A DNA stretch of 64,000 bases, from positions 86,055 to 150,054 of IMG/VR virus record IMGVR_UViG_3300045988_131786. One strand, 5' to 3'. The notes beneath the pieces are model-generated. The model was not told the origin of the DNA and ran no database searches. It saw only the letters and a program-made list of their open reading frames with translations. A program made the translations under genes and the position numbers. Positions 4,001 through 62,135 of the stretch are shown here, one piece after another (position 1 is the first letter of the stretch; the number at the start of each line of letters is the position of its first letter). This DNA is from a virus.

Positions 4001-7000
4001 TAATACAGTAGGTACTAATAAATTTACTTTAAAAGTAGATTATATGGAATCTTCTGGTACTTATAATATGGGTCTTGCGAATTTAGTCAATACAGCTTAT
4101 TCACATCATCCATTAAGAGATTATAATAGTGCAGAAGCTTTTGTTACTGGAACCGCAGGAAAAGAAACTCTTATTTCAGCATATCCTGCTAATGGATTAT
4201 GTTGGTACAGAAACCATAAAGGTAATTGGAAATGTGCATCAACTGGCGACGCTAGTAGAGATGAACAATTAATTACTACTCCTTATGGTGATGTATTAGG
4301 AGATATTTCTTGTACAAGTGCCGCAGATTTTGCTAAAGGACCATGGCAATTAGCTAAAGAGCAAGGACAAACTAAAGTTCTTGGTGGAACTAAGAAAACT
4401 TTACCAAATTCATTAGATGACATTGATACTATTACTAATAATATTAATCAAACTAGTGAAAACGGTACTTATGATGACCTTAAAGGTTATATTAACAAAT
4501 GGTATTCATATGTTCCAGGTACATTATCTCCTATCACTGTAGGTAATTTAAGTGACTATAGAACTTCTGTTCAAGGATTCCCTACTTTAGCATTCTGGCA
4601 GACAAAAACTGGAAAAGAAAATAAACAAGAACCATTATTTATTGGACGTTATAATATGTTACTTGATAAAGGTTCTGCTGAAGCATATGGATTTAAACTT
4701 GGTGGAAGTTATAAACAAGCTTTTATTGAAGGTAATCCATCAGTAGCTGATGTCGCTGAATGTTGGGAATTTGAAAACAACTCTCGTGGTTATTGTTCAT
4801 TTAGAGACCCATGGAGTCGTAAGGAACTTTCCTTTAAAGCTCCAGTAGGAGAAAGTAATGAATTTACCGCAAAAGGCGCACCTATTGTTGCCGACTATTT
4901 TGAATATAGATATAATGCTAATGATGATTATATTGATATGCTTTATAGTATGAATGCTTCTTTTGAAAATACTAATACTATAAAGAAATTACAAAAACAG
5001 TTTGGCGCAGACCAAATTACTGATATTGCTTCTGGTCGTAAAAAATTACTTGATTTATATAGTAATTGGGAAAGAGCAGTAGCATGGGTATGGTCAACTG
5101 CAACAGATGCTGTAATTGATGGAAAAGCTGTTCCTACTCTTGGTTCTTATAATAAAATTGAATTAGCAGAATATGTTTTTACTCCAAATAAATTTTATAT
5201 TGAGGATGAACAAGGCGGATATAAATTTGCTACTGAATATAAAACTGGTATTTCTTATTACTTAATGAATAATGATAAACAATACTATGGTGTTACAGTA
5301 ACAAATGAAGCTAATAAGGTATATGTAGCTAATAAATATTATACTTTAGAGAATGATAGCTATGTTCTTGCTGAGGGAACATATGATTCTAGTGAAGCAT
5401 ATTATGAATTAGTACAAGATACAAGTAAAATTGATGAGTTTTGGAAGCTTCCAGCGCCAGTAACTTATGGAATAACAACTTATGAATATGATACACAAGA
5501 ATATCGTTTAGCTAAGTTTAAAAATGAGGTTGAAGATCACTTTAATCTTGAATACTTAGTAACATATTTTGTAATTACTGAAGTTCTTGAATGTTATGAT
5601 TCTCGTGGAAAGAATGCAATGTTTGCTTCTTGGGGTCCTCAAAAGGCTAAAGGAGATTATATCTGGTATCCAATTTTCTACGATATGGATACACAGTTAG
5701 GTATCAACAATACTGGTATTCCTTCTTTTGAATATAACATTGATGCTACTGAAGATGGAACATTCTCTACTAATGATAGTGTTCTGTGGAATAATTTGTA
5801 TGCGCTGTTTAAAAATCTGATTACAGATAAATATGAGCAGTTAACAGGAGTTCCTAGTGATTATTTTGGTGGAACACTTGCAAATCCTCCATTTGTTAAC
5901 GTAGAAACTATTCAAAGTTGGTATACATGTGACCCTAAATATATTAAGAGTTATTCTGTAAAAGGAGTTAGACCTTTACTTGCTCTTAATCTTGATGAGC
6001 AATATAAATATATCTCTATTACTAATGGTAAAGTCGGTTATCAATATCAAAATGGTGAAATAACCCAAGATACAAGTAACACTTATTTCTATGCTTTACA
6101 AGGTGATAGAAAATTATCTAATAATCAGTTCTTAACAAACCGTTTGAATTATATTGATTCATGGTTGGCTGTAGGAAACTACAAGCGTGGCGGCGCAAAT
6201 AGAATTCGTTCTCGTGTATCCGCAAATAATGCACAAAATACATCAGATAAATGGATTGAGGGTACTTCTACTAATGGTGCTAGTGGTCTTATCATTAATA
6301 CACCTTATTATAAAGAAGACGGAAAAACTAAAACTCATTTATTCGATGGTGAATATTGGATTACAATGACACCTGTTCGTAATATGTATGTAACTGTTGG
6401 TACTGATGCGGCAAATTTCCCATCTCTGAAATATTCTGGTACTCCTGTACGTTTTGAAACTTCGGACTTGGAAAAAGGTGTACGCGAAAGTGGTAACTAT
6501 CGTGAGCAGTTATATTATATTTATGGACTTGACCAAATGAAATCACTTGGAGATTTAAGTAGATTATATTTCCAAGAGTTTGAACTTTCTGGTAAAGCTT
6601 CTAAGATGGTAGATTTACTTCTTGGATATGATGGAACTGATGAAGAAGGAAGTCAATATAAAAATAGTGGCGTAAATGATTGGACAATCCCAGCTGCTGC
6701 AGGTACTATTACTGGTGGTATGCCATTATTAAGAGAGGTTAATTTAAGTAATATTACTTTTAAAAACCAAACTCCTACATTTGATTTTTCAAGTTGTGAA
6801 AAACTTGAGAATTTCCGTGATATTGGTTCAAACATTACTCAAGTTACTTTTGCTGATGGTGTTGCTTTAAATACTTTGTATTTATCTGATTCTACAGTAA
6901 ACTTAAAACTTGTTGAAGCTAGATTACTTACTGATTTAGTAACTGATGAAAAAGCTCCAATTACTAGAAAGAAAGACAATACACTTACAGCTAAACCTGG

Positions 7001-8972
7001 TTTATTTATTGATGGTTTAACAAATAATAAGCAACAAACTAAACTTATTACTTTTGATATCCAAGGTGGTAATTTAGGTTATAATAGTTATAAACTATTA
7101 AAACTTTATATTGACGCCGCAAGTCATACAGATGCAAATGCAACTCGTAGTATTAATCTTACTGATGTTCAGTGGAGTCCATATGTTAAAGTTACTGATT
7201 CAGATTTAGGATTTAGTAATACTGCTAAATATTTTAAGGATGATGGACATTTCGGATTAGTTGCATTTACTAGAGATAATTATGATGAAGTAGGTTTCTC
7301 TGGATGGTCTCAATTAATCAAAAATGAAATGATTTATGAATATACACCAACCGCAATAAATGGTATCACTTTAGATGAAGTTAATGGTGTAACGAATATT
7401 ACAGATACAGCTCTTTTTGAAGAACTTGTAAGTAATGTTCATTATCTTAGCACTGCAGAATCTAATAATGAAGTTCCAAATATTACAGGTTATGTATATA
7501 TTAATAATGAAACTGCTGTTGATGAAGGAACAATTCAAACTAAGTTAGCAAGTAAATTCCCTGGTTTAACTTTCTTCTTTAATAAAGTTGACAAAGGATA
7601 TGCGGCTAGATTTGTTATTCTTGAAAATGGTGTAGAGACATTAATTGGAACTGATAAGATTAGTAAGCAAAACTTTAATACTTTCTTTACTAATCCATTA
7701 GAAAGAACAGAGACTGCATTTAGTCCAAGCAGAATTAATGCTTTAAGACCTACTAAAGACTTCTTAGGTTGGAGTACAACTAATGACAGAAATGGCTTAG
7801 TTGAAACATATGATGAAGTTGCTACTGGTCTTGGACTACCTGTAACTCATACATGGAAAGACTTGAAGCTAGAAAAAGATAAATATGATTATACTTTCTA
7901 TGCAGTGTTTGAAGACCACCACTGGAATATTTCATTCTATATGGTTGAAGCTGACGGAAATTATACTCCAATTACAAAAGATACTTACTCTTATGTTGGC
8001 GGACAAGTTGTAGTAAATAAAGTTCCAATTTCTTATAAGGCGGTTCATGGTACTACTTTACATGACCCTGGCGTTAATGTAGTTCGTAGTGATGAAGTTA
8101 ATTTGGCTAAAGACCAACGTTATAGATTCATTGGCTTTACAAGAAAAGTAAATGGTAAAAATGTTTATTCTGCGGAAAATGCAGTTAATGTAGTAGATTT
8201 TTCTAAAATAGTTGCAACTGCAAATACAAGTTTTTATGCGGCATTTGTAGAAGAAAGTGTTTATGATAAAGTCACTGACGATAAATATTTTGACTATGTA
8301 GATATACGAATGGATGGAGCTTCTGGATATAGACTTGAACTTAAATCTAAATATCGTAATGCTGGATTCGGAGGTAAAATTACTTTACCAGTAGAATACA
8401 ACGAAAAGCCTATCCTTCAAATTAGCGGATTTGGTGGTAGAGATTCTAACCATACAAATATTACTCATGTATTCTTTAAAGGAACACCAAAGGTTAAATC
8501 TATCGCAGCAAATTGCTTCCAAAATTGTAACCAATTAAAATATTTCCAATATCCAGATACTATAACTGAATTAGGAGCATATTGTTTCCAACTTACAAAT
8601 TCACTTGAAGCTTTTAGACTTAATAAAGGTTTAAAAACTATTGGCGATAATGCTTTAAACCAAGCATTTGAAGAATCATCTGCTCCTTATGAATTATATA
8701 TTCCAGGTACAGTTAGTCAACTTAATCAAAGTGGTCTTTCTTACTTAAAGAGTAATATTACATCTATTGTTATTGGTGGTCCTGGAGATGGAACTAACTT
8801 AAAAACTCTTAGTACTAATGCTTTATCTCAGAACCATAAAGCAAGTAGTATGACTGTTTACTCTAATGGTCCACTTGAATCTTCATTCAAGACATTGTTG
8901 GAGGCAGCTTCTACAGATCCTTTAACAGGATTTATTAAACCTAACGTAACTATTAACTATGTAAATGCATGA
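1089..8972 (+). CDS. Giant tail, host-recognition or adhesin protein of about 2,627 aa. It has an N-terminal tail-fibre-like motif, an internal concanavalin/LamG-like segment and a C-terminal BspA-type leucine-rich-repeat region.
   Basis: ATG at 1089 is preceded by AAAGGAGAT. The N-terminus has YFAVDTGNIYMDANGQAKIPLGG. A LamG-like stretch KFYLNGMLTSVARSQSAGSWSIGAKNLIISSGG...DLYKFRVYNRALG lies around 3230 to 3400. The C-terminus has repeated xxCFxxCxxLxxIxxP/GxxVxxIGxxAFxxxxxL units (FKGTPKVKSIAANCFQNCNQLKYFQYPDTITELGAYCFQLTNSLEAF...), typical of BspA-like LRRs. Confidence 0.7.
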   Translation: MNPSFRPIRGTEEKLLSTPYQEGYIYFAVDTGNIYMDANGQAKIPLGGRGAAVLYSKVKGAQNAGDDNYTLYQDGLEDPSQTVREGDLIINTADGAFYKVLELNPVEEAIICARIAVSGSGGGGGTGGDTGPTIRRGRLTVTNDGESDILNGSPCTFTITTTSATQTVEGKLEPIDDELQLAIKFILTESNQVFYTETLTVKHGQTFTYNVGEHLRTSSDITIDFKLSGSSTNSFYNSGQLQRRVKTHELSIEWVASQFSNMKYFTDSINTSIRFSTGARRILDVYFDDALIYTKIYSAEASDANAAPIITRNSTIYNLDGTSTGNTLSAAYSHGRHTISARLSLAKADGSRGSSTNLIKKEVALYLDEGYPLIWFGDMESVYYEYDTPLVPIRVYDPHAGAAGAEVYLYIDGSDALDGSCYTISNDASNYLYWTLTKLAAGQTTIYQVRVGEDKYETWETVPEFEVLEDPRKMDVARSSLIVDFDSRGRSNSEVAQRRSQLKIGDSYATLSGFNWYNNGWVMDSNNVTCLRISNGASVSLPIGSMSFAGNIASHTIEMRLKIRNVQSYDKLITNYTRYQVISDPDKLSSPDIDRSWTDDVVFAEFLAQKATGLASYDAYLTKRLPELREQNPTIPTYEDLEFSRLHRTYDLASAMVKYIENESSPQTEAAICLGPQDGYFSNGTNAVTVDYVEDKVINLTIVYDNGTGTSNLGNNKLMKFYLNGMLTSVARSQSAGSWSIGAKNLIISSGGCDVDLYKFRVYNRALGLNEVLKNIAYDDTDTTAWDLAELYVANESIGEDYQFSYNKMIEYNKNHPDGYIMPYIIFTTDDTDNSTGGKLPWRKDTPVTAGIEFVNTGLERAYDNGDLAAEAKAAGVEIEDYYLHHCPSWISEGATLSVQGTSSEFYPRRNYKGKTKVNVPHVDENGGTSTDEFGDVRTDTVYTMKCHKGPFKKKYDAGEAKPQKFFYYDNNTVGTNKFTLKVDYMESSGTYNMGLANLVNTAYSHHPLRDYNSAEAFVTGTAGKETLISAYPANGLCWYRNHKGNWKCASTGDASRDEQLITTPYGDVLGDISCTSAADFAKGPWQLAKEQGQTKVLGGTKKTLPNSLDDIDTITNNINQTSENGTYDDLKGYINKWYSYVPGTLSPITVGNLSDYRTSVQGFPTLAFWQTKTGKENKQEPLFIGRYNMLLDKGSAEAYGFKLGGSYKQAFIEGNPSVADVAECWEFENNSRGYCSFRDPWSRKELSFKAPVGESNEFTAKGAPIVADYFEYRYNANDDYIDMLYSMNASFENTNTIKKLQKQFGADQITDIASGRKKLLDLYSNWERAVAWVWSTATDAVIDGKAVPTLGSYNKIELAEYVFTPNKFYIEDEQGGYKFATEYKTGISYYLMNNDKQYYGVTVTNEANKVYVANKYYTLENDSYVLAEGTYDSSEAYYELVQDTSKIDEFWKLPAPVTYGITTYEYDTQEYRLAKFKNEVEDHFNLEYLVTYFVITEVLECYDSRGKNAMFASWGPQKAKGDYIWYPIFYDMDTQLGINNTGIPSFEYNIDATEDGTFSTNDSVLWNNLYALFKNLITDKYEQLTGVPSDYFGGTLANPPFVNVETIQSWYTCDPKYIKSYSVKGVRPLLALNLDEQYKYISITNGKVGYQYQNGEITQDTSNTYFYALQGDRKLSNNQFLTNRLNYIDSWLAVGNYKRGGANRIRSRVSANNAQNTSDKWIEGTSTNGASGLIINTPYYKEDGKTKTHLFDGEYWITMTPVRNMYVTVGTDAANFPSLKYSGTPVRFETSDLEKGVRESGNYREQLYYIYGLDQMKSLGDLSRLYFQEFELSGKASKMVDLLLGYDGTDEEGSQYKNSGVNDWTIPAAAGTITGGMPLLREVNLSNITFKNQTPTFDFSSCEKLENFRDIGSNITQVTFADGVALNTLYLSDSTVNLKLVEARLLTDLVTDEKAPITRKKDNTLTAKPGLFIDGLTNNKQQTKLITFDIQGGNLGYNSYKLLKLYIDAASHTDANATRSINLTDVQWSPYVKVTDSDLGFSNTAKYFKDDGHFGLVAFTRDNYDEVGFSGWSQLIKNEMIYEYTPTAINGITLDEVNGVTNITDTALFEELVSNVHYLSTAESNNEVPNITGYVYINNETAVDEGTIQTKLASKFPGLTFFFNKVDKGYAARFVILENGVETLIGTDKISKQNFNTFFTNPLERTETAFSPSRINALRPTKDFLGWSTTNDRNGLVETYDEVATGLGLPVTHTWKDLKLEKDKYDYTFYAVFEDHHWNISFYMVEADGNYTPITKDTYSYVGGQVVVNKVPISYKAVHGTTLHDPGVNVVRSDEVNLAKDQRYRFIGFTRKVNGKNVYSAENAVNVVDFSKIVATANTSFYAAFVEESVYDKVTDDKYFDYVDIRMDGASGYRLELKSKYRNAGFGGKITLPVEYNEKPILQISGFGGRDSNHTNITHVFFKGTPKVKSIAANCFQNCNQLKYFQYPDTITELGAYCFQLTNSLEAFRLNKGLKTIGDNALNQAFEESSAPYELYIPGTVSQLNQSGLSYLKSNITSIVIGGPGDGTNLKTLSTNALSQNHKASSMTVYSNGPLESSFKTLLEAASTDPLTGFIKPNVTINYVNA

Positions 8973-37903: not shown

Positions 37904-38411
37904 TTATTCTTCAAATGTCATCATTTTATCATCATCTAAAACATTGATAGAGACATTATCTATTTCTATTATATCATAATTATAAGTTGTAGCAAACATA
38001 GGTTCAATTCTACAAGTTCCTAAATCTGCTTTACAAAATAGGTAAATTCCTTTATACCTTCCTCGTCTATTTTTATATATTGATAATTTAATTGTTGGCG
38101 TATCAAAAGCATTTGTTGCTAAAATACTTTGAAGAGCTTCTAAATCTCTAGTTGTGACGCTAAGTAAAATACTACCATAATCAATTTTATCTGCGATTGA
38201 TTTTGCTCCACGAAGTAAATTCTGGTCAGGTGTTTCTGAATCTTTATAAGTCCCATTTAACTGAGTCGCAGACATAATAAAGATACCATATTGATTACAT
38301 AAATCTTTTAAGCGATTAGATAACATAAAAAGAATATTATCTTCTCTAAGTTTTACCCCACCGGAGCGTTTAGTTATCTCTTCAAGAATCTTTAGGCTAG
38401 TATGTATATAA
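37904..38411 (-). CDS. DnaB-like replicative helicase, exon 2 (C-terminal part). The upstream boundary is approximate.
   Basis: ...LSNRLKDLCNQYGIFIMSATQLNGTYKDSETPDQNLLRGAKSIADKIDYGSILL matches the DnaB region [29 protein letters not shown]...ADLIM. The in-frame extension upstream of the annotated Met (…HDYIHTSLKILEEITKRSGGVKLREDNILFM) continues the DnaB alignment. Confidence 0.6.
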
Positions 38412-39474
38412 TCGTGACGCGAACTTCTTATATTTCTATAAGCGCTGACTATCTCTTACTTAACTAATATAAGTTAAGGAAACCGTTTCGGCATTTAACT
38501 AGCTTCGTTACCTAAAACTAGACTATGTACTAATAATAGCCCTACTTCCCTGCCCAGAAGGCTTAGGGAATAGTCGATACAGGTTCTTTAGACGTTTTTC
38601 CAGGTTCTTTTTTTAATAATGTCTGCAACGGTTGATTTTGATATACCATAATTTTTAGCTAAATTTTCATAAGAAATATTATTTTTTTCTCTATCTTCCC
38701 TAATCTGTTTAACTAATTCAGCATTTAATTTAGTATGTCTTTTTCTAACTTTAAATACTTCTGGCATGATTAAACCATATCTTTTTCCAGACCATATATT
38801 TAAAAAAGAATTAAAATGTAGCCTATCTTTGTATTTCTCATTATATATTTTTGTTGGACTTTCATTATTTAGATAAGCTTTTCTAAGTTCAATAATTTCT
38901 GACTCTGTTAATTTTGCTTGACCCCAAATTTCTTTTTTTCTATGCTCTAAAGTTTTCGGTTTAGAGCAATTTTTCCCACCATCTTCTACATTATAACCAT
39001 TAGGAACTTTAGTATTATAAAAATTAATATAATATATTTCTAATTCATTTAAAATATTTATATCATCAATATCTTTTACCAAAATTTCATATTTAAAGCT
39101 TTCATATCCATATTTTCTAAAAGCTTTATGTAATAAAGAATTATAATCAGAATTATTTGGATTTTTATATGCTGATTTATGTGCTGCATATCTTGCTTTT
39201 GGATTCACAGTTTGTCCAATATATTTTTTATTATTTTTTAAATTTGTATAACAATATATAATTCCCATATGTTATACCTCCTTTCATAATTAATATGAAA
39301 GGAGTCAGAAATTATTTAACTACTTACGTCCAAAGTTTCCCACGGGACTCCCTTATTTTTCAATTTAGGGTCCCCCGTTAGCATACATACCATTGTTTTG
39401 GTGTATGTATACCCCTAGCAGTCACTAGGCAAAGTTTTTCATTGTCCCAACACCCTTTTAATAGGGTTGAACAC
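38412..39474 (-). mobile_element. Group I intron (boundaries approximate) interrupting the DnaB-like helicase gene and carrying a GIY-YIG homing endonuclease ORF
   Basis: The helicase reading frame is broken between the two exons. The intervening DNA contains GC-richer structured segments (agtttcccacggga..cccgttagc ; ctgcccagaaggcttagggaatagtc) that recur at about 90% identity in the second intron at 44080..45158. Confidence 0.6.
38588..39268 (-). CDS. GIY-YIG homing endonuclease (intron-encoded), with a C-terminal helix-turn-helix
   Basis: GIIYCYTNLKNNKKYIGQT...R...H (GIY-x10-YIG); EDGG; C-terminal HTH (ISKSTVADIIKKRTWKN). GGAGG RBS upstream. Confidence 0.8.
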   Translation of the reverse strand: MGIIYCYTNLKNNKKYIGQTVNPKARYAAHKSAYKNPNNSDYNSLLHKAFRKYGYESFKYEILVKDIDDINILNELEIYYINFYNTKVPNGYNVEDGGKNCSKPKTLEHRKKEIWGQAKLTESEIIELRKAYLNNESPTKIYNEKYKDRLHFNSFLNIWSGKRYGLIMPEVFKVRKRHTKLNAELVKQIREDREKNNISYENLAKNYGISKSTVADIIKKRTWKNV

Positions 39475-40509
39475 AAACCTAACATCATGGTCGCGAATAT
39501 TCCGCTTTATTGTATTTTCTATATCCTGCAAATTAAAGTCTGGTAGTTCTTCTACATATAAAGGAGCTTTTGAAAGAATTTCCGCAGCTTTGAGTACTCT
39601 ATCTTCCTCATCACCTTCATATTTACCATTTAAAATATGTTCTTCATTTACATTTGAAAGAAAAGCTAACATCATTGTTTGTATTTCTTCCAATTCCTGC
39701 TCAGTTGTAATAAATAAAGTAGGATTACAAGCCCCTGTACTTATCCAACCAAATGTTTCATTATATATATGACTACAAGCTATATAGCAAGCATCTGCCA
39801 CCATTGACCTTGTCTTGCCAATCCCCGTGGCGGCTGACCGCAAATAAAACTTCTTTAATCTTGCACCACGAGTAACTGTATTAATAAGAGGTCCATATAA
39901 TGGAACACCTACTTCTGGATATTGTTTAAATTTTTCAATTAAATCAAAAACACCTTCGCCCGCTTGCTCACTAGCATTTTGAACATCATCAACATATTGC
40001 ATTCTGATAAGTTCAATTTTATCATTCACTCTACTGGCTATGTCGGTTAAAGAACAATTATCAAGTAGCTCTTCTTGTTCTTGTTTCTTTTTCATATCTA
40101 ATATATTATCTGGATCATATATATCAGATACATCAATCCCAAAATTATCAAATGCTCTTAATAGAGTCATTTTTTTAAGTCGATTATAATAATAATCAAA
40201 AGCTAAAGGGGAAGCACCATCTGAGGCTTTAATTAACCACTCTTCACCTTTTTGCTGCTTATATAAAGCTCCACTAGTTGGATGTGTTTCAAAAAAATCA
40301 GATACAGTTTTTAAATTTACCTCTTTTGCGCCTTGCTCATGAATTTTATATAAAGCCCCAAAAACTATTTTATGAAATTCATTAGAAAAGTCTTCTTCAT
40401 TTATTGTATATCTATCTTTTTCATCTAATAAAGATAAATTTTTAAATACATTTCCTATAACTTGAACTATAGCCGAAACATCTACATATTTACTTGCCAT
40501 TAATATCAA
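39475..40509 (-). CDS. DnaB-like replicative helicase, exon 1 (N-terminal and RecA-like core). The 3' boundary is approximate.
   Basis: Walker A GIGKTRSMVADACYIA; APLYVEE (the DnaB APIYIDD region); ...RDHDVRFVF parallels DnaB RDHGGLSLIMIDY. Confidence 0.65.
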
Positions 40510-43690: not shown

Positions 43691-44079
43691 TTATTCAAAC
43701 AAAAAGTCATCAGCATAAGGCAAATATTTCGCAAATTTAATAAAACTGTCTAATTCTGAATCTATTCCATCAGTTTTACTCCATTCAACAAGTTTATGCC
43801 CTTTTCTTTGCTGAATCATTGTACGAATATTTTCATAACTCATTGTTACTGTGCGAGTTTGGAGCCATGATTCTGGAAGCCAGCACACAAGCTCTTTCCA
43901 GTAACGTTTATCTTTAGTTGCCAGATATTTCTGACGCAAACCCTCAAGAAATTGAATAAGATAATCAATTTCTTCTCCAGAAGTAATAATATCTGGACAA
44001 TAATCTCCTGTTTCAAAGCAATCTAAAGTAATTGGTTTACTTGTAAGTTTATGCATTGTAGATGTAGAATTTGCGGTTG
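43691..44079 (-). CDS. ThyX-fold (FAD-dependent thymidylate synthase-like) protein, exon 2
   Basis: After splicing, the junction reads APLYW|WKEFDTYKIGTTANSTSTMHKL, aligning with ThyX [27 protein letters not shown]. The C-terminal LPESWLQTRTVTMSYENIRTMIQQRKGHKLVEW aligns with ThyX [34 protein letters not shown]. The ThyX sequences are recalled from memory. Confidence 0.55.
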
Positions 44080-45158
44080 TACCGATTTTGTAAGTATCAA
44101 ATTCCTTCCCATTTATGGACTATCTTTTACCCCTTTTGCAATAAAGGAGGATACCATTTCGACATTTAACTAACTTCGTTACCTAAAATTAGACTACGTA
44201 TCAATAGTAGCTCTACTTCCCTGCCCAAAAGGCTTAGGGAATAGTCTCTACAGGTTCTAATTATATTAAATCTTCAATAGTAAAATTTTGGTTATATTTA
44301 ATAATTTTCAATGGAATATTATGCTTTTCACAATATTCTCTTTTTCTCTTATCATTTTCAATAAGATTATCCCATTCTTTTCCCCAACTTCCTTCAGGTC
44401 TTAAATAATGTTGTAATCCATTAAATTCGATAAGACTTTTTAATTCTCCATTAGAAAATATTGCGAAATCGAATCTTAATCTTCTTCCACCAATTCCGTT
44501 TAAATCAGAAAAAGTGTATTGAGTAGAAAATTCATAATTTCCATCAATAAGCATTTTAGTAATTTTCTGTTCTCCTAAAGAATGAAGACATCCACAAGAT
44601 TGTATACCAACAGAACGTATATTGCTTCCTTTTGTTGTAAAAATATTTCCACAATGCTTACAAATACATTTCCAATGAGCAATTCCTTGCGGAGATGAGC
44701 CGTCTCTTTCAAGAACTTTAAAATTATCATCCTCATAACCAGTCATATCAACAACATTTTGAACGGCTTTTTCTTTTTGTAAACACCCGCATGATTGAGT
44801 ATGATTAGAATTAAGATTTCTTGTATCTACGTCTAATTCATTACCACAATCACAAATACAATGCCATTTACCACCTTTTATATAATATTGAGGTGTTAAT
44901 CGACCAAATTTTTTACCTGTTAAATCAACTCTTGGTTTAGATTTTCTTGTTTGTTTTTCCATATTAAATTATCTCCTTACTTTTTATCGTTCTATTATAT
45001 CTAAAAAGTATCCAAGTATAATTTAATAAGTTTGACACGATTTTTTATAATTAGTTTCCCACGGGATTCCAATGGGTGGTTCCCCGTTAGCTATATTTTA
45101 CAAAAATATAACCCTCGCTGATAAGCGAGCAAAGTATTTCATTGGCAGAAAGAATTCT
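44080..45158 (-). mobile_element. Group I intron in the ThyX-like gene, carrying a homing endonuclease ORF
   Basis: Exon 1 ends in U (..tac tgg t|) and the intron ends in G (..aaatg|gg aag), matching group I splice-site rules and restoring the ThyX alignment across the junction. The 5' and 3' structured segments are about 90% identical to the DnaB intron (38412..39474). Confidence 0.65.
44261..44962 (-). CDS. Intron-encoded homing endonuclease-like protein. Its N-terminal half has repeated zinc-ribbon CxxC pairs; its C-terminal domain is Vsr/EDxHD-like.
   Basis: CICDCG...CGCLQKE and CICKHCGN...CGCLHS Cys pairs. C-terminal RLRFDFAIFSNGELKSLIEFNGLQHY resembles very-short-patch-repair / EDxHD-type nuclease motifs. 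Confidence 0.5.
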   Translation of the reverse strand: MEKQTRKSKPRVDLTGKKFGRLTPQYYIKGGKWHCICDCGNELDVDTRNLNSNHTQSCGCLQKEKAVQNVVDMTGYEDDNFKVLERDGSSPQGIAHWKCICKHCGNIFTTKGSNIRSVGIQSCGCLHSLGEQKITKMLIDGNYEFSTQYTFSDLNGIGGRRLRFDFAIFSNGELKSLIEFNGLQHYLRPEGSWGKEWDNLIENDKRKREYCEKHNIPLKIIKYNQNFTIEDLI

Positions 45159-45579
45159 ACCAGTAGAGTGGAGCCGTAATGTCAACTGTTACCATAATTT
45201 GACGTAAAAATTTCCTATGCTCAGGACCTGCTTTAATTAAACGTTTAGCTAAATCCATATCATTTGGACCAATAAAAGCAACATTAGCTATTTGATGGTC
45301 AAAATCAATTTCAAGTAAACCATTTTTAAGTAACCATCTATCATAATCATCTGTTAAATCAGAAGAAGCTTTGCTATAAGTCTCTGGATAATCTGGGTCT
45401 TTGGTCTCTTGAACCCAAGTTTCCGCCACTAAATAATCCTGTTGACTGTCTTCTATATTAATCAAACCAAAAAAACTATCACTCTTATTCCAGCTCTCTA
45501 ATGGATTTCTCATTCCTCTAAGAGCAGGTCCAAAATTATAAGTTTTAATATTTTCAAACTTCATTCTTTTACCTTCCAT
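45159..45579 (-). CDS. ThyX-fold protein, exon 1
   Basis: GPALRGMRNPLESWNKS parallels ThyX GRACYQSWSKPNP. AGPEHRKFLRQIMVTVDITAPLYW parallels [20 protein letters not shown]. Confidence 0.55.
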
Positions 45580-45851
45580 TCTATAACTAATTTCATTTTC
45601 TGTTTTAATTCTACTTCTATAATTAACATATCATTATAACCAAAAGCAGTTTTGATTAATTTAAAATAACGATTATGAATTTCAATTATATCTTCTTTAG
45701 TAGACTTATCAGATTTACCATATTCTGCAACCATTAGGTCACTTATGGTAGGATAACCTTTATATAAATATGTTCGCGGTTTCCCATTATCATACCAAGA
45801 TAAAAAGGTATCACCTAATATATTTTTATTATAATTAGTAAAAAAATACAT
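45561..45851 (-). CDS. Hypothetical protein (96 aa)
   Basis: ORF overlapping the start of the ThyX-like exon 1. Confidence 0.35.
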   Translation of the reverse strand: MYFFTNYNKNILGDTFLSWYDNGKPRTYLYKGYPTISDLMVAEYGKSDKSTKEDIIEIHNRYFKLIKTAFGYNDMLIIEVELKQKMKLVIEWKVKE

Positions 45852-45864
45852 AAGTAATACCTCC

Positions 45865-46854
45865 TTATTTTATACTATAACCAAAATCTTTGGCATGAAA
45901 ATATTCTTGCCAATAATCTTCACGTTCATTTAATTCTTCTGGTTTTACTTTTTCAATTACTTCAAAAGTAAAATTTTCTGGTCCACTCTCTTGCATTGCT
46001 GGATATAATTTATTGCGGGTTGGCGTTTCTGCGCCTACTCCACGTTTGATATGCTGTCGCCAACGCTCTCGAATATTGACCGCCTGCCCAATATAACATT
46101 TTCCATCTAAAATATTTGTAATTTTATAAATACCTGTAATATCTTTATCTCCAATGACTCTACCAATTAAAGCATTATAAGGTTTTTCATAGTACACTTT
46201 ATAAATTACTTTATTAATAGCATCTGGATAACGAATATTAGAACTTACCTCACGTAGTTTTTTAATTTCTGCAACATCTTGTTCTGATAATTGGAGTCTA
46301 TAAAAATCTTGCTGAGACTCTTTTTCTTCTTCACGTTTTTTAGCTTCAACAGCCGCATCTACAAGAGACTTATATTTTTCTAATTCATTTCGGAATTGAA
46401 GAATTTCATTTTTTTTATTTTTAGAATCTTCATTAAAACCTTTTACAATTTCTTCAACAGATTTTAAATAAGCATCTTTATAAGAACTTCTATCTTCTTC
46501 AAGTTTAGCAGATAATTTTTCTGCTTCTCTATCATAAGTATCATTTAATCCATTAATAAATTCTTGTAACTTCATAGATTCTTTATTATAAGAGTCTTTT
46601 AACTTTGTAATTTCACTCGTATAATTAAAAGATTCTTTAGTCAATGCTCTAAGAGTACCTCTCATTTTAGCTATTTTAGATTCATAATCTTCATTAGTTA
46701 AATTAAGAAATTGTTTATTAGATTCTAATTCTTCAATATCAAATTCTAATAATGATTTAGTTTTCTTTAATTTTGAAATTTGATAAATTTCCAGACAAAT
46801 TATAATCAAACCTAAAATACCTAAGAAAAACATTATTAAATATAATACATTCAT
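45865..46854 (-). CDS. Membrane-anchored coiled-coil protein with a C-terminal GIY-YIG nuclease domain
   Basis: N-terminal transmembrane helix VLYLIMFFLGILGLIIICL; about 180 aa of coiled coil (KLKDSYNKESMKLQEFINGL...); C-terminal GIYKITNILDGKCYIGQAVNIRERWRQH...ENFTFEVIEKV...REDYWQ. Confidence 0.6.
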   Translation of the reverse strand: MNVLYLIMFFLGILGLIIICLEIYQISKLKKTKSLLEFDIEELESNKQFLNLTNEDYESKIAKMRGTLRALTKESFNYTSEITKLKDSYNKESMKLQEFINGLNDTYDREAEKLSAKLEEDRSSYKDAYLKSVEEIVKGFNEDSKNKKNEILQFRNELEKYKSLVDAAVEAKKREEEKESQQDFYRLQLSEQDVAEIKKLREVSSNIRYPDAINKVIYKVYYEKPYNALIGRVIGDKDITGIYKITNILDGKCYIGQAVNIRERWRQHIKRGVGAETPTRNKLYPAMQESGPENFTFEVIEKVKPEELNEREDYWQEYFHAKDFGYSIK

Positions 46855-46909
46855 ATTTTTAGAGAAAAAGAGGACAATTAATATTGCCCTCTTTGTTTTT
46901 ATATATTAA

Positions 46910-47278
46910 TTACTCAGCTTCTGTTGCGTCTGGGTCAAATGCCATTCCAGCTGGTGTAAGTTTAAGGAATTTAACTGGTTTATGTGTTCCATCCTCAAGT
47001 TCTACCTCTGCAGGAACGCGAACGCCATATCCTTTACGCTGAATAGCTGCTGTAAAAATACCATCTACACTTTTCTTCGGAATATCAAGTGCTTCAGCTA
47101 CATCTGCTGCTGTTACGTTTGCTCCATCAATCTCTTTCAGATAATTAAATACTTTCTTAGAATTGTCTTTCATCATGGTAATAATCTCCTTTAAATATAT
47201 AATTTGTTTATTTTTATAATAGCTATTTTTACTAGCTTTATTTTTAAATATTATATCAAAAAAATTTTTAATGGTCAA
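46910..47278 (-). CDS. Hypothetical small protein. The real start is possibly the internal MMKDNSKK at 47174.
   Basis: ORF. The C-terminal half is hydrophilic with a helix-like VTAADVAEALDIPKKSV segment. Confidence 0.35.
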   Translation of the reverse strand: MTIKNFFDIIFKNKASKNSYYKNKQIIYLKEIITMMKDNSKKVFNYLKEIDGANVTAADVAEALDIPKKSVDGIFTAAIQRKGYGVRVPAEVELEDGTHKPVKFLKLTPAGMAFDPDATEAE

Positions 47279-55327: not shown

Positions 55328-57034
55328 TTATTTCTTTCTAAGATAATCTTTAGAAGCAAATCCAGTATAAATTACATTTTTATAAGTAAATTGGATATAA
55401 AGCCAAATATCACCATTAGATACATTATAATATCCATAATTTTTTACTTTTGTTCCTTTTGGAATTGCTACTAAAACTGATTTTTTAGTTCCAGCGCCAT
55501 CTCTAACATTTAAAGTTCCACCGTTAGTACTTACTACATAAGTTCCTGCAAGATTTTTATTAAAAGAGTCTGCTCCTTGCTTTGCTGTAACTTTTTTAAT
55601 GTTAGTTGTAGCTGTAGTTGTTTGTTGCTTTTTATTAGCAACATATTTATAATAACTATTTTTTTCACAAGATGTATATGCATATCCTTTTGCTGCGCCA
55701 GGCCATACGATCTTATACCAATTATTACTTGTTTTTCCAAGAACTTCAACTGCAGTTCCCGCAGTAATTAAACCATAAGAAGTATAAGAAGTTCCATTAC
55801 CAGCACGAATATTCATTTCGCATAAAGCTGTTGCAGTTCCAATTCCTTTTCCACAATATGATTTATTTCCTTGTGGAACTTTATTTCCACCTGTAGTAGT
55901 AGAAGTACCTGGATTAAAACTTACATGAGCGCCTTTAGTTACATTTGTAGCTGTATGTGAACGTTCATTAAGAAGAATATCTCCAGGAAGTAAATATCCA
56001 TAACCAGAGGTATATTTACTATCAGTTAAAATAGTAAATCCTGCTCGACTATATGCAGCTCTCATATCGCCTGTATAAGTTGCGCTAATAGTTTGAAGTG
56101 CTGGAATACCGAGTAAATATCCTACAGCTCTAGTATTTGCAATAACGCCAGCAGAACAATCATCTTCACATTTTTTTGTAATTTTAGATGGATCATATCC
56201 AACCAATCTTAAATTATTCCAGTAGCTATCTCTTCCATATTGGTCATATCCAATATTATCGTTTAAAGCTGCGGCACATCCTAGTTCTGCCAATTTCAGA
56301 CCTACTTGTGGATTTTTTGTATATCTAATTACACAATTCCATGGTCTATTATACCAAGAGCGGAGATACCACTCGTCACCAGTTTGGTCACCTGCGGCGC
56401 CACCATGATATTGACCATTCTCATCATGCCCAGAATTAGAAATATAATGAGTTCCTTTACTATAAATATAATTATCATAATTTCCCATATTAGTTACTTT
56501 ACCTCCTGCATATTTATTATAATATTGCTTTCCATAATTTGCTCTTGTGGTTTTTACGCTACTTCCTGTATTTGCTGGACATTCAAATCTCGTTAGCACT
56601 ATATCAGATGCTTCTTGAACACTTTTTGCATTTTTTAATGTTTTTAATACTGTTGGATAAGTTGTAGTTAATTCTTTTATTAACCATTCTAATTGTGTAT
56701 TTTCATCACTGATTGATACACCTTTTGATTTTACTAAATCATATAAACCCGCTTTTCGACTAGGGCTAGTCCATTGACACAAACCATAGCCATAACGTTT
56801 GCCAGGTAAAGGATTTAAAAATGTAGCTCTAGAAATTCTACCAGAATCTATTGCCGCAGTATAAGTAACATCATTGTAATTTTGTCCATTTTGAGAAAGT
56901 CGTTTTAAACATAGCATTTCTACTCTATTGGCTCTCATGCCAGATTCAGCATAAATATTTCCCATTAAACCTGCAACGCCATATTCATTTCCAAGTTGCT
57001 TTAATAAATAATCCCATATGTTCTTGTCCGTCAT
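55328..57034 (-). CDS. Endolysin (peptidoglycan hydrolase) with an N-terminal catalytic domain and C-terminal SH3b-like cell-wall-binding repeats
   Basis: N-terminal GLMGNIYAESG-type lysozyme/glucosaminidase-like motif. C-terminal repeats such as TSNNWYKIVWPGAAKGYAYTS and GDIWLYIQFTYKNVIYTGFASKDYL are typical of SH3b. Confidence 0.6.
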   Translation of the reverse strand: MTDKNIWDYLLKQLGNEYGVAGLMGNIYAESGMRANRVEMLCLKRLSQNGQNYNDVTYTAAIDSGRISRATFLNPLPGKRYGYGLCQWTSPSRKAGLYDLVKSKGVSISDENTQLEWLIKELTTTYPTVLKTLKNAKSVQEASDIVLTRFECPANTGSSVKTTRANYGKQYYNKYAGGKVTNMGNYDNYIYSKGTHYISNSGHDENGQYHGGAAGDQTGDEWYLRSWYNRPWNCVIRYTKNPQVGLKLAELGCAAALNDNIGYDQYGRDSYWNNLRLVGYDPSKITKKCEDDCSAGVIANTRAVGYLLGIPALQTISATYTGDMRAAYSRAGFTILTDSKYTSGYGYLLPGDILLNERSHTATNVTKGAHVSFNPGTSTTTGGNKVPQGNKSYCGKGIGTATALCEMNIRAGNGTSYTSYGLITAGTAVEVLGKTSNNWYKIVWPGAAKGYAYTSCEKNSYYKYVANKKQQTTTATTNIKKVTAKQGADSFNKNLAGTYVVSTNGGTLNVRDGAGTKKSVLVAIPKGTKVKNYGYYNVSNGDIWLYIQFTYKNVIYTGFASKDYLRKK

Positions 57035-57088: not shown

Positions 57089-58336
57089 TTACATTAATTC
57101 AGCTTGTTCAGCTATTTTACTTCTATAAATTTTTTGTAATTCAATTTCACCATAATAGTCGCAACCTCTGAATACCTCAGACATTTTTCGCATACCATTA
57201 TTTGCACCACTATATAAAATTGAATCTACTTGATGTTTGGTATCTCCATCAATAATACAAATACTATCTTCTCCAATACGTTGAAGAGCAAGTCTCATTA
57301 ATTCAACACTTAAATTTTGAGCTTCTGTAATATATATGCCTGCATTTAATCCAGTAGTATCAAATCCACGTAAGTCAGACATTGGTAATAACATAAGTTT
57401 TCTGTCAGTAATTAATCTTTCTACTTCAATTCTATCGCCAAGTTTGCTAGAAAGCATATTACCTATTTGTGAATCCAATAACTTATCATTTTTATCGCCT
57501 GGATAATAGCCAAGTTTTGCGGCGCCTTGAGCGGCAATTGTATTACAAAATACTATAATTTTATCTATCTTGCGCTTTTCAAGCTGCTCAAATAGAAAAC
57601 CGAGACTTAAATAACTTTTACCAGAACCCGCACGTCCTTGAATCATTGTAATTTGATTATTATTAAAAGATTCTAAAGCTGCGCATTGGTAAGCATCTTT
57701 TGGAGTAATTTTACCAAACATATAACTTTCAGTTTTATAATAATGAAGTTGTTCAAATCCATTCTCAGTTCTTTTATATTTATCTACTATTTCTCCTTGC
57801 GGATTTTTAATAAATAAATATTCATTAATTAAACAATTGAATTTTTTAGAAATTTCCTTGTCAAATAAATCTGCATAAATTTGTGCTAATTCTTCATCAG
57901 AAGAATAAGTAATTTCTTTAAATCCTGTATAATCATCAGTGCTTTTTTCTACAACTGAGATTATATGGTCATTATCAAAGAAAATTGTTGCTAGTGATCT
58001 TAAGCATAAATCATTAGAACAAAAATAAACTTCGTCAGGATAATTATAAGCAGAAATTAAGATTCTACTATCATTATTATCTGGTAAATTATATTTTTTA
58101 ATTAATTCAGATAAATCATAATAAATATCAGTAATGAACTTTTCTTTATTTTTATCTAAAATTCTAGTTAAATGCCTTGCGGCATATTTAACATCAGCAT
58201 CTTTTTTATCAGAACTTTTTATGTCTTCCAATTCCCGCAATGAAACTGAAGAGATAATTACTTGTTCTTCTGGATTATCAAATAAAGTATCTGCAGTTAA
58301 TAGCAGACTACAAGTATCATAATAGATATTTCTCAT
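57089..58336 (-). CDS. PIN-domain plus PhoH-like ATPase fusion (PhoH2/YlaK type)
   Basis: N-terminal PIN-like YYDTCSLL...D. C-terminal Walker A GRAGSGKSYLSLG followed by PhoH-like motifs. Confidence 0.65.
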   Translation of the reverse strand: MRNIYYDTCSLLLTADTLFDNPEEQVIISSVSLRELEDIKSSDKKDADVKYAARHLTRILDKNKEKFITDIYYDLSELIKKYNLPDNNDSRILISAYNYPDEVYFCSNDLCLRSLATIFFDNDHIISVVEKSTDDYTGFKEITYSSDEELAQIYADLFDKEISKKFNCLINEYLFIKNPQGEIVDKYKRTENGFEQLHYYKTESYMFGKITPKDAYQCAALESFNNNQITMIQGRAGSGKSYLSLGFLFEQLEKRKIDKIIVFCNTIAAQGAAKLGYYPGDKNDKLLDSQIGNMLSSKLGDRIEVERLITDRKLMLLPMSDLRGFDTTGLNAGIYITEAQNLSVELMRLALQRIGEDSICIIDGDTKHQVDSILYSGANNGMRKMSEVFRGCDYYGEIELQKIYRSKIAEQAELM

Positions 58337-59227: not shown

Positions 59228-60775
59228 TTACTCATTTGTATCTATATTTGTTTCTTTAAAAGATTCAACAGCTTTTGTTCCAAGAACGCCAGCTAAAAGA
59301 GATTTAATGTCAATACCAAGAGATTCACTTAGTCCCTCAGAAACCTGAGTTACATTAGTCATAATATCTCCAGCAAGTTTAGATGTATCTCCGCCAAACA
59401 TCATAATCTTATCAACATTTGTATATCCTTTACCAACAGCTTCAGCGATTGCAGGTAACTGCTCGAAGTAAAGTTTAAGTGTTTCAAGTTTCATGTTAAT
59501 AACCGCCGCATCCTGGTAGTTTTTCATTGCTTCCGCTTTCTTCTGAAGACCTTCTGCTTCAGCTTCAAGTTTAGCTTTAATTGCAGCAGCTTCAGCCTCA
59601 CCTTTAGCTTTTGTTGCAGCTGCATCAGCTTCACCCTGAGCTTTTACTGCATCTGCAAGTGCTTTTTTAGCTTCAGAATCTCTCTGTGCTTCTGCAAGAG
59701 CTGCTTCTGCCTGTTTTGTTCTTTCAAACAATTCAGCCTCAGATTTCTTCTGAGTTTCATACAGTTTAGCATCAGCTCTCTGCTGTGCTGCATACTTCTC
59801 AGCTTCAGCGGTCTTTTTAACTTCAGCTTCCAGAGCGCGCTCTTTGATAGCGACTTCTCTTTCTTTTAACTCAATCTGTTTTTCTTGACGAGCAATATCT
59901 GCTTCAGTAGCAGCAACATCTTTAACCTGACGCTGTCTCTCATCCTCAATAGCTTTTGCTGCAGCAGCCTGCGCTTTGCGGGTATCCGCACTTTTCTTTA
60001 AATCTGCCTGTTTGATTTCAAATTCATTGTTACGAACTGCAATTTGTTCAGCAGCTGCAACTTTAGCATCATTGGCAGCTTTAGAGTTCTGAGCTTCTGC
60101 AATAGCAACTTCTCTTTCAGCATTAGACTTAGCAATAGCAGCATTTTTAGAAATCTGTGCCATATTGTCCTGACCAAGAGCAGTGATAAGATTTTTCTCA
60201 TCCTCTAACTTCTGAATATTGCAGGACTCAATCCAAATACCAAGAGCATTCATGTCCTTCTGTGCTTTTGCTTGAACTTCATCTCCAAAAGCCTTACGGT
60301 CATTACATAACTGCTTTAATTCCTGGGTTCCAATGATTTCTCTCATGTTACCCTGTAAAGAATCCTGCAAAGACTGCTCAATCTGCTCTTTAGACATATT
60401 AAGGAAGTTTTTCATAGCTGCGGCAACCATCTCAGAGGTAATACCTTTTTCTTCATCTTTAAGGTCATTCTCAGTAAGGACTCTTACTTTTGCAACTGCA
60501 TCAATATTTACACCAATAAAATCCTTAGTTGGAATATAACCATTTGTTTTAATGTCAATAGACATCTGACGCAATGTTAAAGTATCCAAACGTTCAAAGA
60601 AAGGAATCTTAATACCGGCTTTACCAATTAAAATTCTAGGTTCTTTGTGGAAACCAGAAATAATGTAAGCTGTATCCGGTGGAGCTTTAACATATCCTGA
60701 AGCAATTACCGCGATAACGACAACCGCAAGTAAAACAAAGGGTACGAACGGTAAGATAGTTGTTAGAAAATTCAT
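59228..60775 (-). CDS. Flotillin / SPFH (band 7) domain membrane protein
   Basis: N-terminal transmembrane helix ILPFVPFVLLAVVVIAVIASG. SPFH core GVNIDAVAKVRV... Long Ala/Glu/Lys-rich coiled coil (EAEAA...) typical of the flotillin family. Confidence 0.75.
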   Translation of the reverse strand: MNFLTTILPFVPFVLLAVVVIAVIASGYVKAPPDTAYIISGFHKEPRILIGKAGIKIPFFERLDTLTLRQMSIDIKTNGYIPTKDFIGVNIDAVAKVRVLTENDLKDEEKGITSEMVAAAMKNFLNMSKEQIEQSLQDSLQGNMREIIGTQELKQLCNDRKAFGDEVQAKAQKDMNALGIWIESCNIQKLEDEKNLITALGQDNMAQISKNAAIAKSNAEREVAIAEAQNSKAANDAKVAAAEQIAVRNNEFEIKQADLKKSADTRKAQAAAAKAIEDERQRQVKDVAATEADIARQEKQIELKEREVAIKERALEAEVKKTAEAEKYAAQQRADAKLYETQKKSEAELFERTKQAEAALAEAQRDSEAKKALADAVKAQGEADAAATKAKGEAEAAAIKAKLEAEAEGLQKKAEAMKNYQDAAVINMKLETLKLYFEQLPAIAEAVGKGYTNVDKIMMFGGDTSKLAGDIMTNVTQVSEGLSESLGIDIKSLLAGVLGTKAVESFKETNIDTNE

Positions 60776-61391: not shown

Positions 61392-62135
61392 TTATTCTTC
61401 ACCAACCTTTCTCCATATTCGTCCTCCTACGGTTGAATACCGAGAAGAACCAGCTATACATTTTCCAATGCTTTGTCTATTTATTTTTTCTACTCTTGAT
61501 GCTTCACTAATACTATCATAATAAACAATATCTTTAGGATTATCTTTTTTTATACCATAAATAGCAGTTCTCCTTTTTCGAGTTTTCATTTCTGGAATAA
61601 TAACTTTATTATTTTCATCTAAATAACGAAAAATTAATCCATTACAAGAATAAACGTCTCCATCGCAAATTTGTTTAACTGAACTTGCTCTTGCGTCTCT
61701 ATCCCAACCTTGTTTTTCAGCTGCGTCATGAAGAGAATTATAAATTTCTAAAATTTCATTTTTTTCATTTACTAAAGCACATTTTTTACTAACTTTTTTA
61801 ATATATTTTTGAGTATTTTCATGTGCAAGAGAATTTGATGTTGTGCAAGTTGTTTGATTATATCCGTTAGGAACTAAAGAACTATAATGAATAATTTCAT
61901 AATGCTCATAACCCTGCATTTCTTCTATTGTTAAAAAATCATCTTTTAAAATTTCAAAAGAAAAATTTTTAACTCCATATTTTCTAAAAGCCTTATACAA
62001 GGGATAATTATACTGAGGATTATTTTTATTAAAAGCGGCATTAATATGCTCTTTCCATCTTTTATTAACCCTTGTACTAGAACCAATATAAATTTTATTA
62101 TTTATTTTATTAGTAATTTTATAAACAGTTTTCAT
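61392..62135 (-). CDS. Free-standing GIY-YIG homing endonuclease (Seg-like)
   Basis: VYKITNKINNKIYIGSS...R...H...N motifs. Its stop codon abuts the start of the phosphoesterase gene. Confidence 0.75.
   Translation of the reverse strand: MKTVYKITNKINNKIYIGSSTRVNKRWKEHINAAFNKNNPQYNYPLYKAFRKYGVKNFSFEILKDDFLTIEEMQGYEHYEIIHYSSLVPNGYNQTTCTTSNSLAHENTQKYIKKVSKKCALVNEKNEILEIYNSLHDAAEKQGWDRDARASSVKQICDGDVYSCNGLIFRYLDENNKVIIPEMKTRKRRTAIYGIKKDNPKDIVYYDSISEASRVEKINRQSIGKCIAGSSRYSTVGGRIWRKVGEE

Follow-up and report, generated by a model that had tools for sequence, protein, structure and literature searches.

A predicted membrane-anchored GIY-YIG nuclease encoded at a fixed locus of 150-200-kb gut phages

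Known GIY-YIG enzymes comprise soluble homing endonucleases, nucleases of DNA repair such as UvrC and Slx1, restriction enzymes and the endonuclease II (EndoII, DenA) of phage T4. Each GIY-YIG domain offers one active site, and known enzymes such as R.Eco29kI, Cfr42I and I-TevI oligomerise or nick sequentially. T4 EndoII, which is small, soluble and tetrameric, initiates host DNA breakdown. In bacteria, a GIY-YIG single-gene anti-phage system that is often plasmid-borne has been named Uzume, and no description of its architecture or mechanism was found in the literature. A layout in which an N-terminal transmembrane helix and a coiled coil carry a C-terminal DNA-binding domain is that of p16.7, the product of an early gene of phi29, a phage of Bacillota; p16.7 has about 130 amino acids and binds DNA without cutting it. 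This protein organises the membrane-associated replication of phi29 DNA, and its structures have been solved (1zae, 2bnk, 2c5r) (PMC11476376). No description of a membrane-anchored, stalk-borne GIY-YIG nuclease was found in the literature. The gene analysed here, which encodes a predicted protein of that kind, is located in a 64,000-nucleotide stretch of phage DNA (the window; positions 86,055 to 150,054 of the IMG/VR record IMGVR_UViG_3300045988_131786), a tail-fibre-like protein being among the products of the window.

The nuclease gene occupies positions 45865..46854 on the minus strand (stop codon at 45865-45867), as delimited from the list of open reading frames (ORFs) and from full-length homologues. 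It starts with ATG and encodes 329 amino acids, its coordinates coinciding exactly with those of the initial annotation of this DNA, and the identical protein sequence was found on 20 metagenome contigs. From the N-terminus, the protein comprises a transmembrane anchor (residues 3-24, VLYLIMFFLGILGLIIICLEIY, followed by KLKKTK; 46783..46848, minus strand), a long helical stalk or coiled coil (residues 25-180; 46315..46782, minus strand), a conserved two-helix pre-domain (residues 181-240; 46135..46314, minus strand) and a GIY-YIG catalytic domain ending in GYSIK (residues 241-329; 45868..46134, minus strand). The initial annotation had proposed one protein joining a membrane helix, a long helix and a GIY-YIG domain, and this layout was found uninterrupted in homologues of 43-97% identity. 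It had also allowed for two genes split at an unrecognised start; a single conserved ORF was found, and the two-gene reading was rejected on the conservation of the same continuous architecture. An AlphaFold2 (AF2) model of the monomer, computed from a 27-sequence family alignment (43-59% identity), showed a mean predicted local distance difference test (pLDDT) value of 87.7 and a core with the order beta-beta-alpha-alpha-beta-alpha.

The catalytic domain was matched by Pfam PF01541 at residues 241-319 (34.2 bits, cutoff 22.6) and by TIGR01453, "group I intron endonuclease" (65.5 bits, cutoff 56.05), the latter only through model positions 3-87 of 215, which correspond to the catalytic part. 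The PHROG homing-endonuclease families phrog_314, phrog_7168 and phrog_5123 also match the core. In the AF2 model this is a three-stranded alpha/beta core (strands 241-247, 253-258 and 295-302, with flanking helices), placed by Foldseek on the catalytic domain of I-TevI (1ln0/1mk0; 1ln0_B) with a TM-score of 0.79 and a root-mean-square deviation of 1.9 A. The GIY motif corresponds to residues 241-243, and an alignment to I-TevI without net offset paired Y243 with Y6, Y254 with Y17, R264 with R27, H268 with H31 and E312 with E75, all five being invariant in the 27 family sequences.

The core had initially been described as canonical, with the pattern GIYKITN...E...N, and its catalytic Arg, Glu and Asn had been singled out for verification. 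The Arg and the Glu stand, together with the two Tyr and the His, but the Asn does not: no canonical Asn follows the catalytic Glu of this protein in the I-TevI alignment or in the 27-sequence alignment, and the position of I-TevI N90 (GYNI) is taken by Ser327, located in the C-terminal GYSIK two residues before the end and invariant in the subfamily of the window. In family members at greater distance GYN is retained, with GG or a Gly-rich tail behind it, so that the Ser form is a derived state fixed in this subfamily. The invariance of the five residues and of the replacing Ser, together with the Asn kept in sister subfamilies, points to selection on the active site. This pattern argues for a working active site, and the best explanation is that the gene encodes a predicted catalytically competent GIY-YIG DNA endonuclease. 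Since the best sequence and structure matches are to I-TevI-like enzymes, the nuclease domain probably derives from that homing-enzyme lineage. It shares with these enzymes the core fold and the Tyr, Tyr, Arg, His, Glu set, but its core stands at the C-terminus, the reverse of their domain order, and has neither a linker nor a DNA-binding domain. The N-terminal membrane anchor and the stalk helix (about 155 residues) are further differences, as are the replacement of N90 by Ser and the fixed position of the gene described below.

The single N-terminal transmembrane helix of the initial annotation was borne out. The Kyte-Doolittle 19-residue maximum was 3.0, starting at residue 3, in the sole hydrophobic segment of the protein, and an N-terminal hydrophobic helix is present, though its sequence diverges, in 110 of the 119 full-length (at least 290 amino acids) 50%-cluster representatives found among the 147 best ones checked. 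In all 229 anchor-bearing members, Lys and Arg are enriched behind the helix (on average 3.6 in 15 residues) and almost lacking ahead of it (mean 0.06), the N-terminal tail ahead of the anchor having a median length of 2 residues. Following the positive-inside rule, this charge bias predicts an N-out/C-in topology with the nuclease in the cytoplasm, and injected DNA would therefore be reachable only after its entry into the cell.

Residues 26-180 contain 0 Pro and 3 Gly, with 42% charged residues and a heptad-like a/d pattern, and the AF2 model shows a single unbroken helix over residues 2-180, with pLDDT values of 88-95. The mean proline fraction of the stalk region across the family is 0.04%. 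The long heptad-like coiled coil proposed at the outset is thus retained in the form of a proline-free, heptad-like predicted helix of about 155 residues. Length and sequence vary in its N-terminal half (the family proteins have 290-413 amino acids), and its C-terminal half is moderately conserved, with Y129 and R174 invariant. A weak profile match of the stalk to ATP synthase subunit b (E = 0.005) was obtained; matches to designed pentatricopeptide-repeat proteins in the PDB sequence search were discarded as repeat artefacts, and those to apolipoprotein and other coiled-coil proteins as compositional. Subunit b likewise runs from an N-terminal transmembrane helix into a long dimerising helix, and the N-terminal module of RNase Y has a similar layout; the likeness to both is compositional or architectural, their C-terminal functions being unrelated to the nuclease. 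Ahead of the core, the pre-domain (QDFYRL.LS..D..EI..LR...NKVIYKVYYEKPY..LIGRV.G) carries 16 invariant residues in the 27-sequence alignment (D193, E196, I197, L200, N214-I217, K219, Y221-E223, P225, G231, R232 and G235), and its AF2 helices (191-204 and 210-233) precede the nuclease core in all members. Pfam and PDB searches gave no match to the pre-domain, and nothing in Pfam, NCBIfam or PHROG corresponded to the stalk or to the pre-domain.

A word-indexed search returned more than 5,600 proteins at E<=0.001, and the best 120 of these matches are nearly all full-length proteins of 306-343 amino acids, with a few shorter truncated or fragment calls. Residues 179-329 were also searched exhaustively against 1.84 billion cluster representatives, of which 382 matched at E<=1e-30, the match lying at or near the C-terminus in the best 150 of the 382. 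No name for this family was found in the sources searched. Homologues are encoded on metagenome contigs of 150-200 kb and also on IMG/VR viral contigs. In a species-representative genome set, all 21 matches are on contigs of metagenome-assembled genomes or metagenome-binned contigs from gut samples, with many assigned taxa; 14 of them share the phage synteny, several others are 160-180 kb long, and no bacterial (non-phage) copy was found among the 21. A fold search in BFVD revealed two unnamed viral proteins with the long-helix and GIY-YIG layout (A0A345BPZ2 and A0A8S5RTR9). The anchored nuclease is classed here as a new architectural form of a known enzyme fold, widespread and comprising hundreds of sequence clusters.

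The gene order around the nuclease gene is gyrB, gyrA, (ligA), small ORF, s88, nuclease, small ORF, (phrog_6721 or ThyA and DHFR), s118, YorF, AAA_24, YorH-like and DnaB, and this order persists even where GyrB is only 35% identical. For an unbiased test, 80 IMG/VR loci were selected with the 88-amino-acid s88 protein as the sole query. The nuclease gene lies directly downstream of s88 in all 80 loci, intact in 78 and split by an insertion in 2. A sporadic, mobile distribution was not found, the locus being the same in these 80 relatives and in all syntenic loci. The nuclease gene is a fixed, vertically inherited member of a replication and nucleotide-metabolism module in a clade of 150-200-kb gut phages.

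The two split copies (L030 and L069) are interrupted at the same codon, between GQAVNI and RERW, by an insertion of about 1.2 kb (L030:7096-8316; L069:~7128-8352), whose equivalent in the window is at about 46072-46079. The L030 nuclease allele is 97% identical to that of the window, and the L069 lineage about 57%. In L030 the insertion contains a classic GIY-YIG homing gene of 298 amino acids, whereas L069 retains only a decayed copy; the junctions are group-I-like, with U ending the 5' exon and G ending the insert. A group I intron model gave no Rfam match in either insertion at the gathering threshold or at E<=1, so the intron call is drawn solely from the junctions and the embedded homing gene. 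Exon fragments of these insertion-split nuclease genes appear as the database entries P0009 (263 amino acids) and P0274 (43 amino acids). Homing elements typically occupy conserved catalytic-site codons in important phage genes, and the targeting of the same codon in two lineages suggests that the nuclease gene is important to the phage.

Upstream of the nuclease gene, s88 (46910..47176, minus strand; ATG at 47176, strong Shine-Dalgarno sequence) encodes an 88-amino-acid winged-helix protein; a 122-amino-acid ORF with a TTG start listed at this place was rejected as an artefact of ORF listing. Across the lineages compared, the identity of s88 is 62-87%, with the sole exception of the most distant lineage (47%), GyrB of the same loci being 35-84% identical, and single s88 sequence variants are present on 200-570 gut-metagenome contigs each. 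Its AF2 model, built from an alignment of database homologues (pLDDT 85), is a stand-alone winged helix with Foldseek matches to MarR/MepR and TFIIE, and no family match was found in Pfam, NCBIfam or PHROG. A promoter-like site upstream of s88 (TTGACC, 17-nt spacer, TG-TATAAT; 47250..47278, minus strand) agrees with the consensus at 11/12 positions, with an extended -10 element, and was identified by pattern match alone. Between the s88 stop codon and the nuclease ATG, a terminator-like 12-bp GC-rich hairpin followed by a U-rich run (46867..46894, minus strand) ends 12 nt before the ATG, with an RNA folding energy of -14.8 kcal/mol (z = -3.9). Of 14 related loci, 13 carry an equivalent GC-rich hairpin and T-run whose stem sequences differ, which together with the window makes 14 of 15 sequences. 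In the lineages with a defined start, roughly 5-25 nt separate this hairpin from the nuclease ATG. No Shine-Dalgarno sequence precedes the nuclease ATG; those of the neighbouring genes are of the GGAGG type. The conserved hairpin and the missing Shine-Dalgarno sequence suggest that expression of the nuclease is kept low, through a strong s88 unit, weak read-through and weak nuclease translation, which would suit a dangerous enzyme.

The interpretation tentatively favoured, as the leading candidate although still short of probable, is that of a membrane-held nuclease, dimerised through its stalk, which would cut non-phage DNA at the membrane, the host chromosome being the first choice. The two-residue tail would remain outside the cell, the anchor helix would span the membrane and the stalk helix (about 155 residues; some 20 nm when extended) would project into the cytoplasm and carry the pre-domain and the nuclease core at its tip. 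Because each GIY-YIG domain has one active site and the protein carries no DNA-binding tail, the stalk is expected to bring at least two chains together, and their two active sites could then cut both strands. The missing tail also suggests that substrate choice comes from location: the tether, rather than the recognition of a sequence, would determine reach and substrate access, with the heads kept no farther than about 20 nm from the inner membrane face, and s88, the obvious candidate partner, may contribute to this choice. As to its origin, the catalytic domain of an I-TevI-like homing enzyme was most likely captured and then fused to the membrane stalk. Breakdown of the host chromosome would feed the adjacent nucleotide-salvage, thymidine monophosphate and deoxynucleoside triphosphate genes, as with T4 endonuclease II; the slot next to the nuclease gene and its small downstream ORF is occupied by ThyA and DHFR or by the phrog_6721 gene, and NrdD is encoded elsewhere in the window. 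We infer dimerisation, low expression, substrate and biological role, and for the role we rank host DNA breakdown before the cutting of incoming foreign DNA, and the latter before the processing of replication or recombination intermediates. Action at injection, host-DNA degradation at the membrane and superinfection exclusion, all proposed in the initial annotation, stand as candidate roles, to which the membrane-bound replication site is added here.

Several points weigh against this interpretation. In the subfamily of the window an invariant Ser stands where I-TevI has the canonical Asn (N90), and a monomer AF2 model cannot show a coiled coil. A simple terminator scanner made no call at the hairpin 46867-46894, so that its reading as a terminator relies on folding and cross-lineage conservation, and the hairpin could equally be the mere terminator of a highly expressed s88. 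The part that s88 may play in nuclease action is guilt by association alone. The sequence offers no clue to how the DNA of the phage itself is spared, and nothing ties the nuclease to host DNA over incoming or replicating DNA.

Among the described proteins, T4 EndoII (2wsh) and the window protein are both encoded by fixed, non-homing phage GIY-YIG genes, that of the window lying among nucleotide-metabolism genes. The structural match between them is weak (Foldseek E = 1.1, TM-score 0.38), and EndoII has neither the anchor nor the stalk; EndoII, which acts in the DNA metabolism of its phage, is regarded here as a functional analogue. With p16.7 the window protein has the logic of the layout in common, but the C-terminal domain of p16.7 binds DNA and that of the window protein is a nuclease, and no homology to p16.7 was found in PDB sequence or fold searches. 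UzuA, the Uzume protein, shares a C-terminal GIY-YIG domain in a protein of roughly 280-310 amino acids, the comparison being made through the PADLOC models alone (PDLC03973/03974; E = 2e-9 and 1e-6). The UzuA match (35.4 bits) covers only model positions 182-275 of 278, and generic homing-endonuclease models match equally well or better. Uzume is bacterial, whereas the nuclease family was found only on phage-like contigs, and a search of Bacillus plasmids gave no UzuA-like gene with a C-terminal GIY-YIG domain, the matches being ordinary homing genes with an N-terminal one. Uzume is treated here as an analogue with a similar layout and, as judged from these model matches, not as the same family.

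Other explanations of the gene have been weighed against the favoured one. A free-standing homing endonuclease, that is, a selfish mobile gene with an unusual N-terminus, would agree with the best family matches of the core, which are homing and intron endonucleases, and with the abundance of homing genes in these genomes. It is extremely improbable, because its fixed, syntenic distribution in the 80 independently selected relatives, across deep divergence, effectively refutes it; moreover, the protein is predicted to be membrane-anchored, its catalytic domain is C-terminal and ends the protein without a NUMOD, helix-turn-helix or zinc-finger tail, and the nuclease gene is itself the target of a homing element. 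The distinction drawn in the initial annotation between this protein and the homing GIY-YIG enzymes is therefore upheld by the C-terminal core, the missing DNA-binding tail and the fixed syntenic gene. Its further suggestion of a domesticated nuclease fold used structurally is disfavoured. Such a catalytically dead domain, with a structural or DNA-binding use, for example as a DNA membrane tether, would fit two traits of the subfamily of the window, the loss of the canonical Asn and a domain that stops directly behind its last motif, but it is very unlikely given that the two Tyr, the Arg, the His, the Glu and the replacing Ser are all invariant and that sister subfamilies keep the Asn.

Two roles with an active enzyme are also doubtful, to a lesser degree. 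In superinfection exclusion or inter-phage competition, the nuclease would cut competing phage or plasmid DNA as it emerges at the inner membrane face; single-gene GIY-YIG defence proteins like UzuA would then have a counterpart carried by phages. The cytoplasmic, membrane-proximal placement predicted from the charge bias, and a low constitutive-type expression fitting a sentinel, are consistent with this role, as are the listing of Uzume among GIY-YIG single-gene systems and the weak PADLOC matches to UzuA, whose models likewise have about 180 residues ahead of a C-terminal GIY-YIG domain; in one distant family member the alignment extends over UzuA model positions 8-278 of 278. However, the UzuA matches are no better than those of generic homing-endonuclease models and comprise essentially the nuclease core only, exclusion genes are usually found in variable accessory or moron regions and not universally conserved in a replication and nucleotide module, and the species-representative genome set yielded no bacterial (non-phage) copies. 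A membrane-bound replication or recombination factor, which would anchor the replicating phage DNA and process it by nicking, flap or junction cleavage, is equally unlikely. This role would be in line with the position of the gene between DNA ligase and YorF, AAA_24, DnaB, RecJ-like and Pol III alpha, with the tight linkage to the winged-helix protein s88, with the flotillin/SPFH membrane scaffold encoded in the window, with the parallel between the layout of transmembrane helix, coiled coil and C-terminal functional domain and that of p16.7, and with a chemistry resembling that of structure-specific GIY-YIG enzymes such as Slx1. Against it, PDB searches by sequence and by fold show no similarity to p16.7 or Slx1, the nearest matches of the nuclease core are homing-type enzymes, whose substrate is duplex DNA, and the signals of low expression suit a dangerous enzyme more than a stoichiometric organiser.

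The favoured membrane-held nuclease can be extended, in a form that we consider speculative and unlikely, to a device for spatial specificity. The anchor and the stalk would confine an unspecific nuclease to about 20 nm under the membrane, where it would destroy membrane-attached host DNA or entering foreign DNA, with s88 as a targeting or protective partner. Phage replication would proceed away from this membrane shell, and phage DNA would thus be spared.

No near-identical DNA was found in GenBank phages, and phAss-1 (OQ749652.1) is the only GenBank phage that shares, by protein, more than the nuclease core. It is a TAG-recoded gut phage with Clostridia as predicted hosts (PMC10607447). Its homologue (4488-5468), which again follows gyrB-gyrA, is a 326-amino-acid anchor, stalk and GIY-YIG protein once 8 TAG codons are read through; because of these 8 in-frame codons, all of them in the stalk, the gene is annotated as two short hypothetical proteins. 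Two TAG-suppressor tRNA genes (5863-6028) are located about 400 nt downstream of this homologue. In-frame stops were also observed within well-conserved genes of the loci L010 and L013 (s88) and L069 (nuclease gene), the lineage of the window reading cleanly in the standard code. As these stops interrupt genes that are otherwise well conserved, they suggest that several lineages of the clade use a recoded stop codon. The hosts of the 150-200-kb gut phages are probably Clostridia/Bacillota.

Homing genes, both classic GIY-YIG and HNH, are scattered sporadically in the same genomes. In the window, a free-standing GIY-YIG and NUMOD-like homing gene of 247 amino acids (61392-62135, minus strand) was used as internal control, and a GIY-YIG and helix-turn-helix gene (38588-39268) lies between the N-part (39439-40509) and the C-part (37904-38326) of a split DnaB gene (37904-40509, minus strand), which is contiguous in the relatives L002, L004 and L006. 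Both GIY-YIG homing genes have an N-terminal catalytic domain, a GYN motif and a C-terminal DNA-binding part. The relatives have other homing genes, which interrupt gyrB, dnaB or AAA_24 at sites that vary. The phrog_6721 gene (43691-45579, minus strand) is also split, into an N-half (45157-45579) and a C-half (43691-44056) with a 233-amino-acid HNH-like ORF (44261-44962) between them; its slot contains a single gene of 261-268 amino acids in relatives, L009 carrying the same insertion as the window. Since ThyA and DHFR fill this slot in other lineages, it may be speculated that phrog_6721 is an alternative thymidylate-synthase-type enzyme.

Immediately downstream of the nuclease gene, a 96-amino-acid gene with a strong Shine-Dalgarno sequence (s96; 45561..45851, minus strand) gave no family match in Pfam, NCBIfam or PHROG, and a gene of similar size is found here in several relatives. 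The replication set of the window is SPbeta-like (YorF, AAA_24, DnaB, a RecJ-like DHH protein and Pol III alpha), and the window also encodes NrdD, gyrase, NAD-dependent ligase, RNase H, a tail lysozyme/endolysin and a 2,648-amino-acid protein whose sole match is a PHROG with function unknown. The minus-strand block of replication genes includes a PIN-PhoH fusion protein (57089-58336, minus strand) and a 568-amino-acid protein with tail-lysozyme, endolysin-like and SH3 parts (55328-57034, minus strand). A 515-amino-acid SPFH/Band 7 and flotillin-like protein (59228-60775, minus strand), a membrane-microdomain scaffold unusual for a phage, may be relevant to membrane-associated processes of the clade.

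The presence of the s88 marker on hundreds of gut-metagenome contigs indicates that this phage clade is large and abundant, and its nuclease gene is mis-annotated or split in public records, as in phAss-1. The gene provides a clean example of a homing catalytic domain that appears to have been captured for a fixed viral function and then parasitised by a homing element. Knowledge of the substrate would show how uncultured phages handle host or competitor DNA, and could reveal spatial confinement as a means of controlling a dangerous enzyme. If the spatial device were true, it would represent a new principle by which a viral nuclease tells self from non-self, through location and not through sequence or base modification, and it would be carried by very abundant phages of the human and animal gut.

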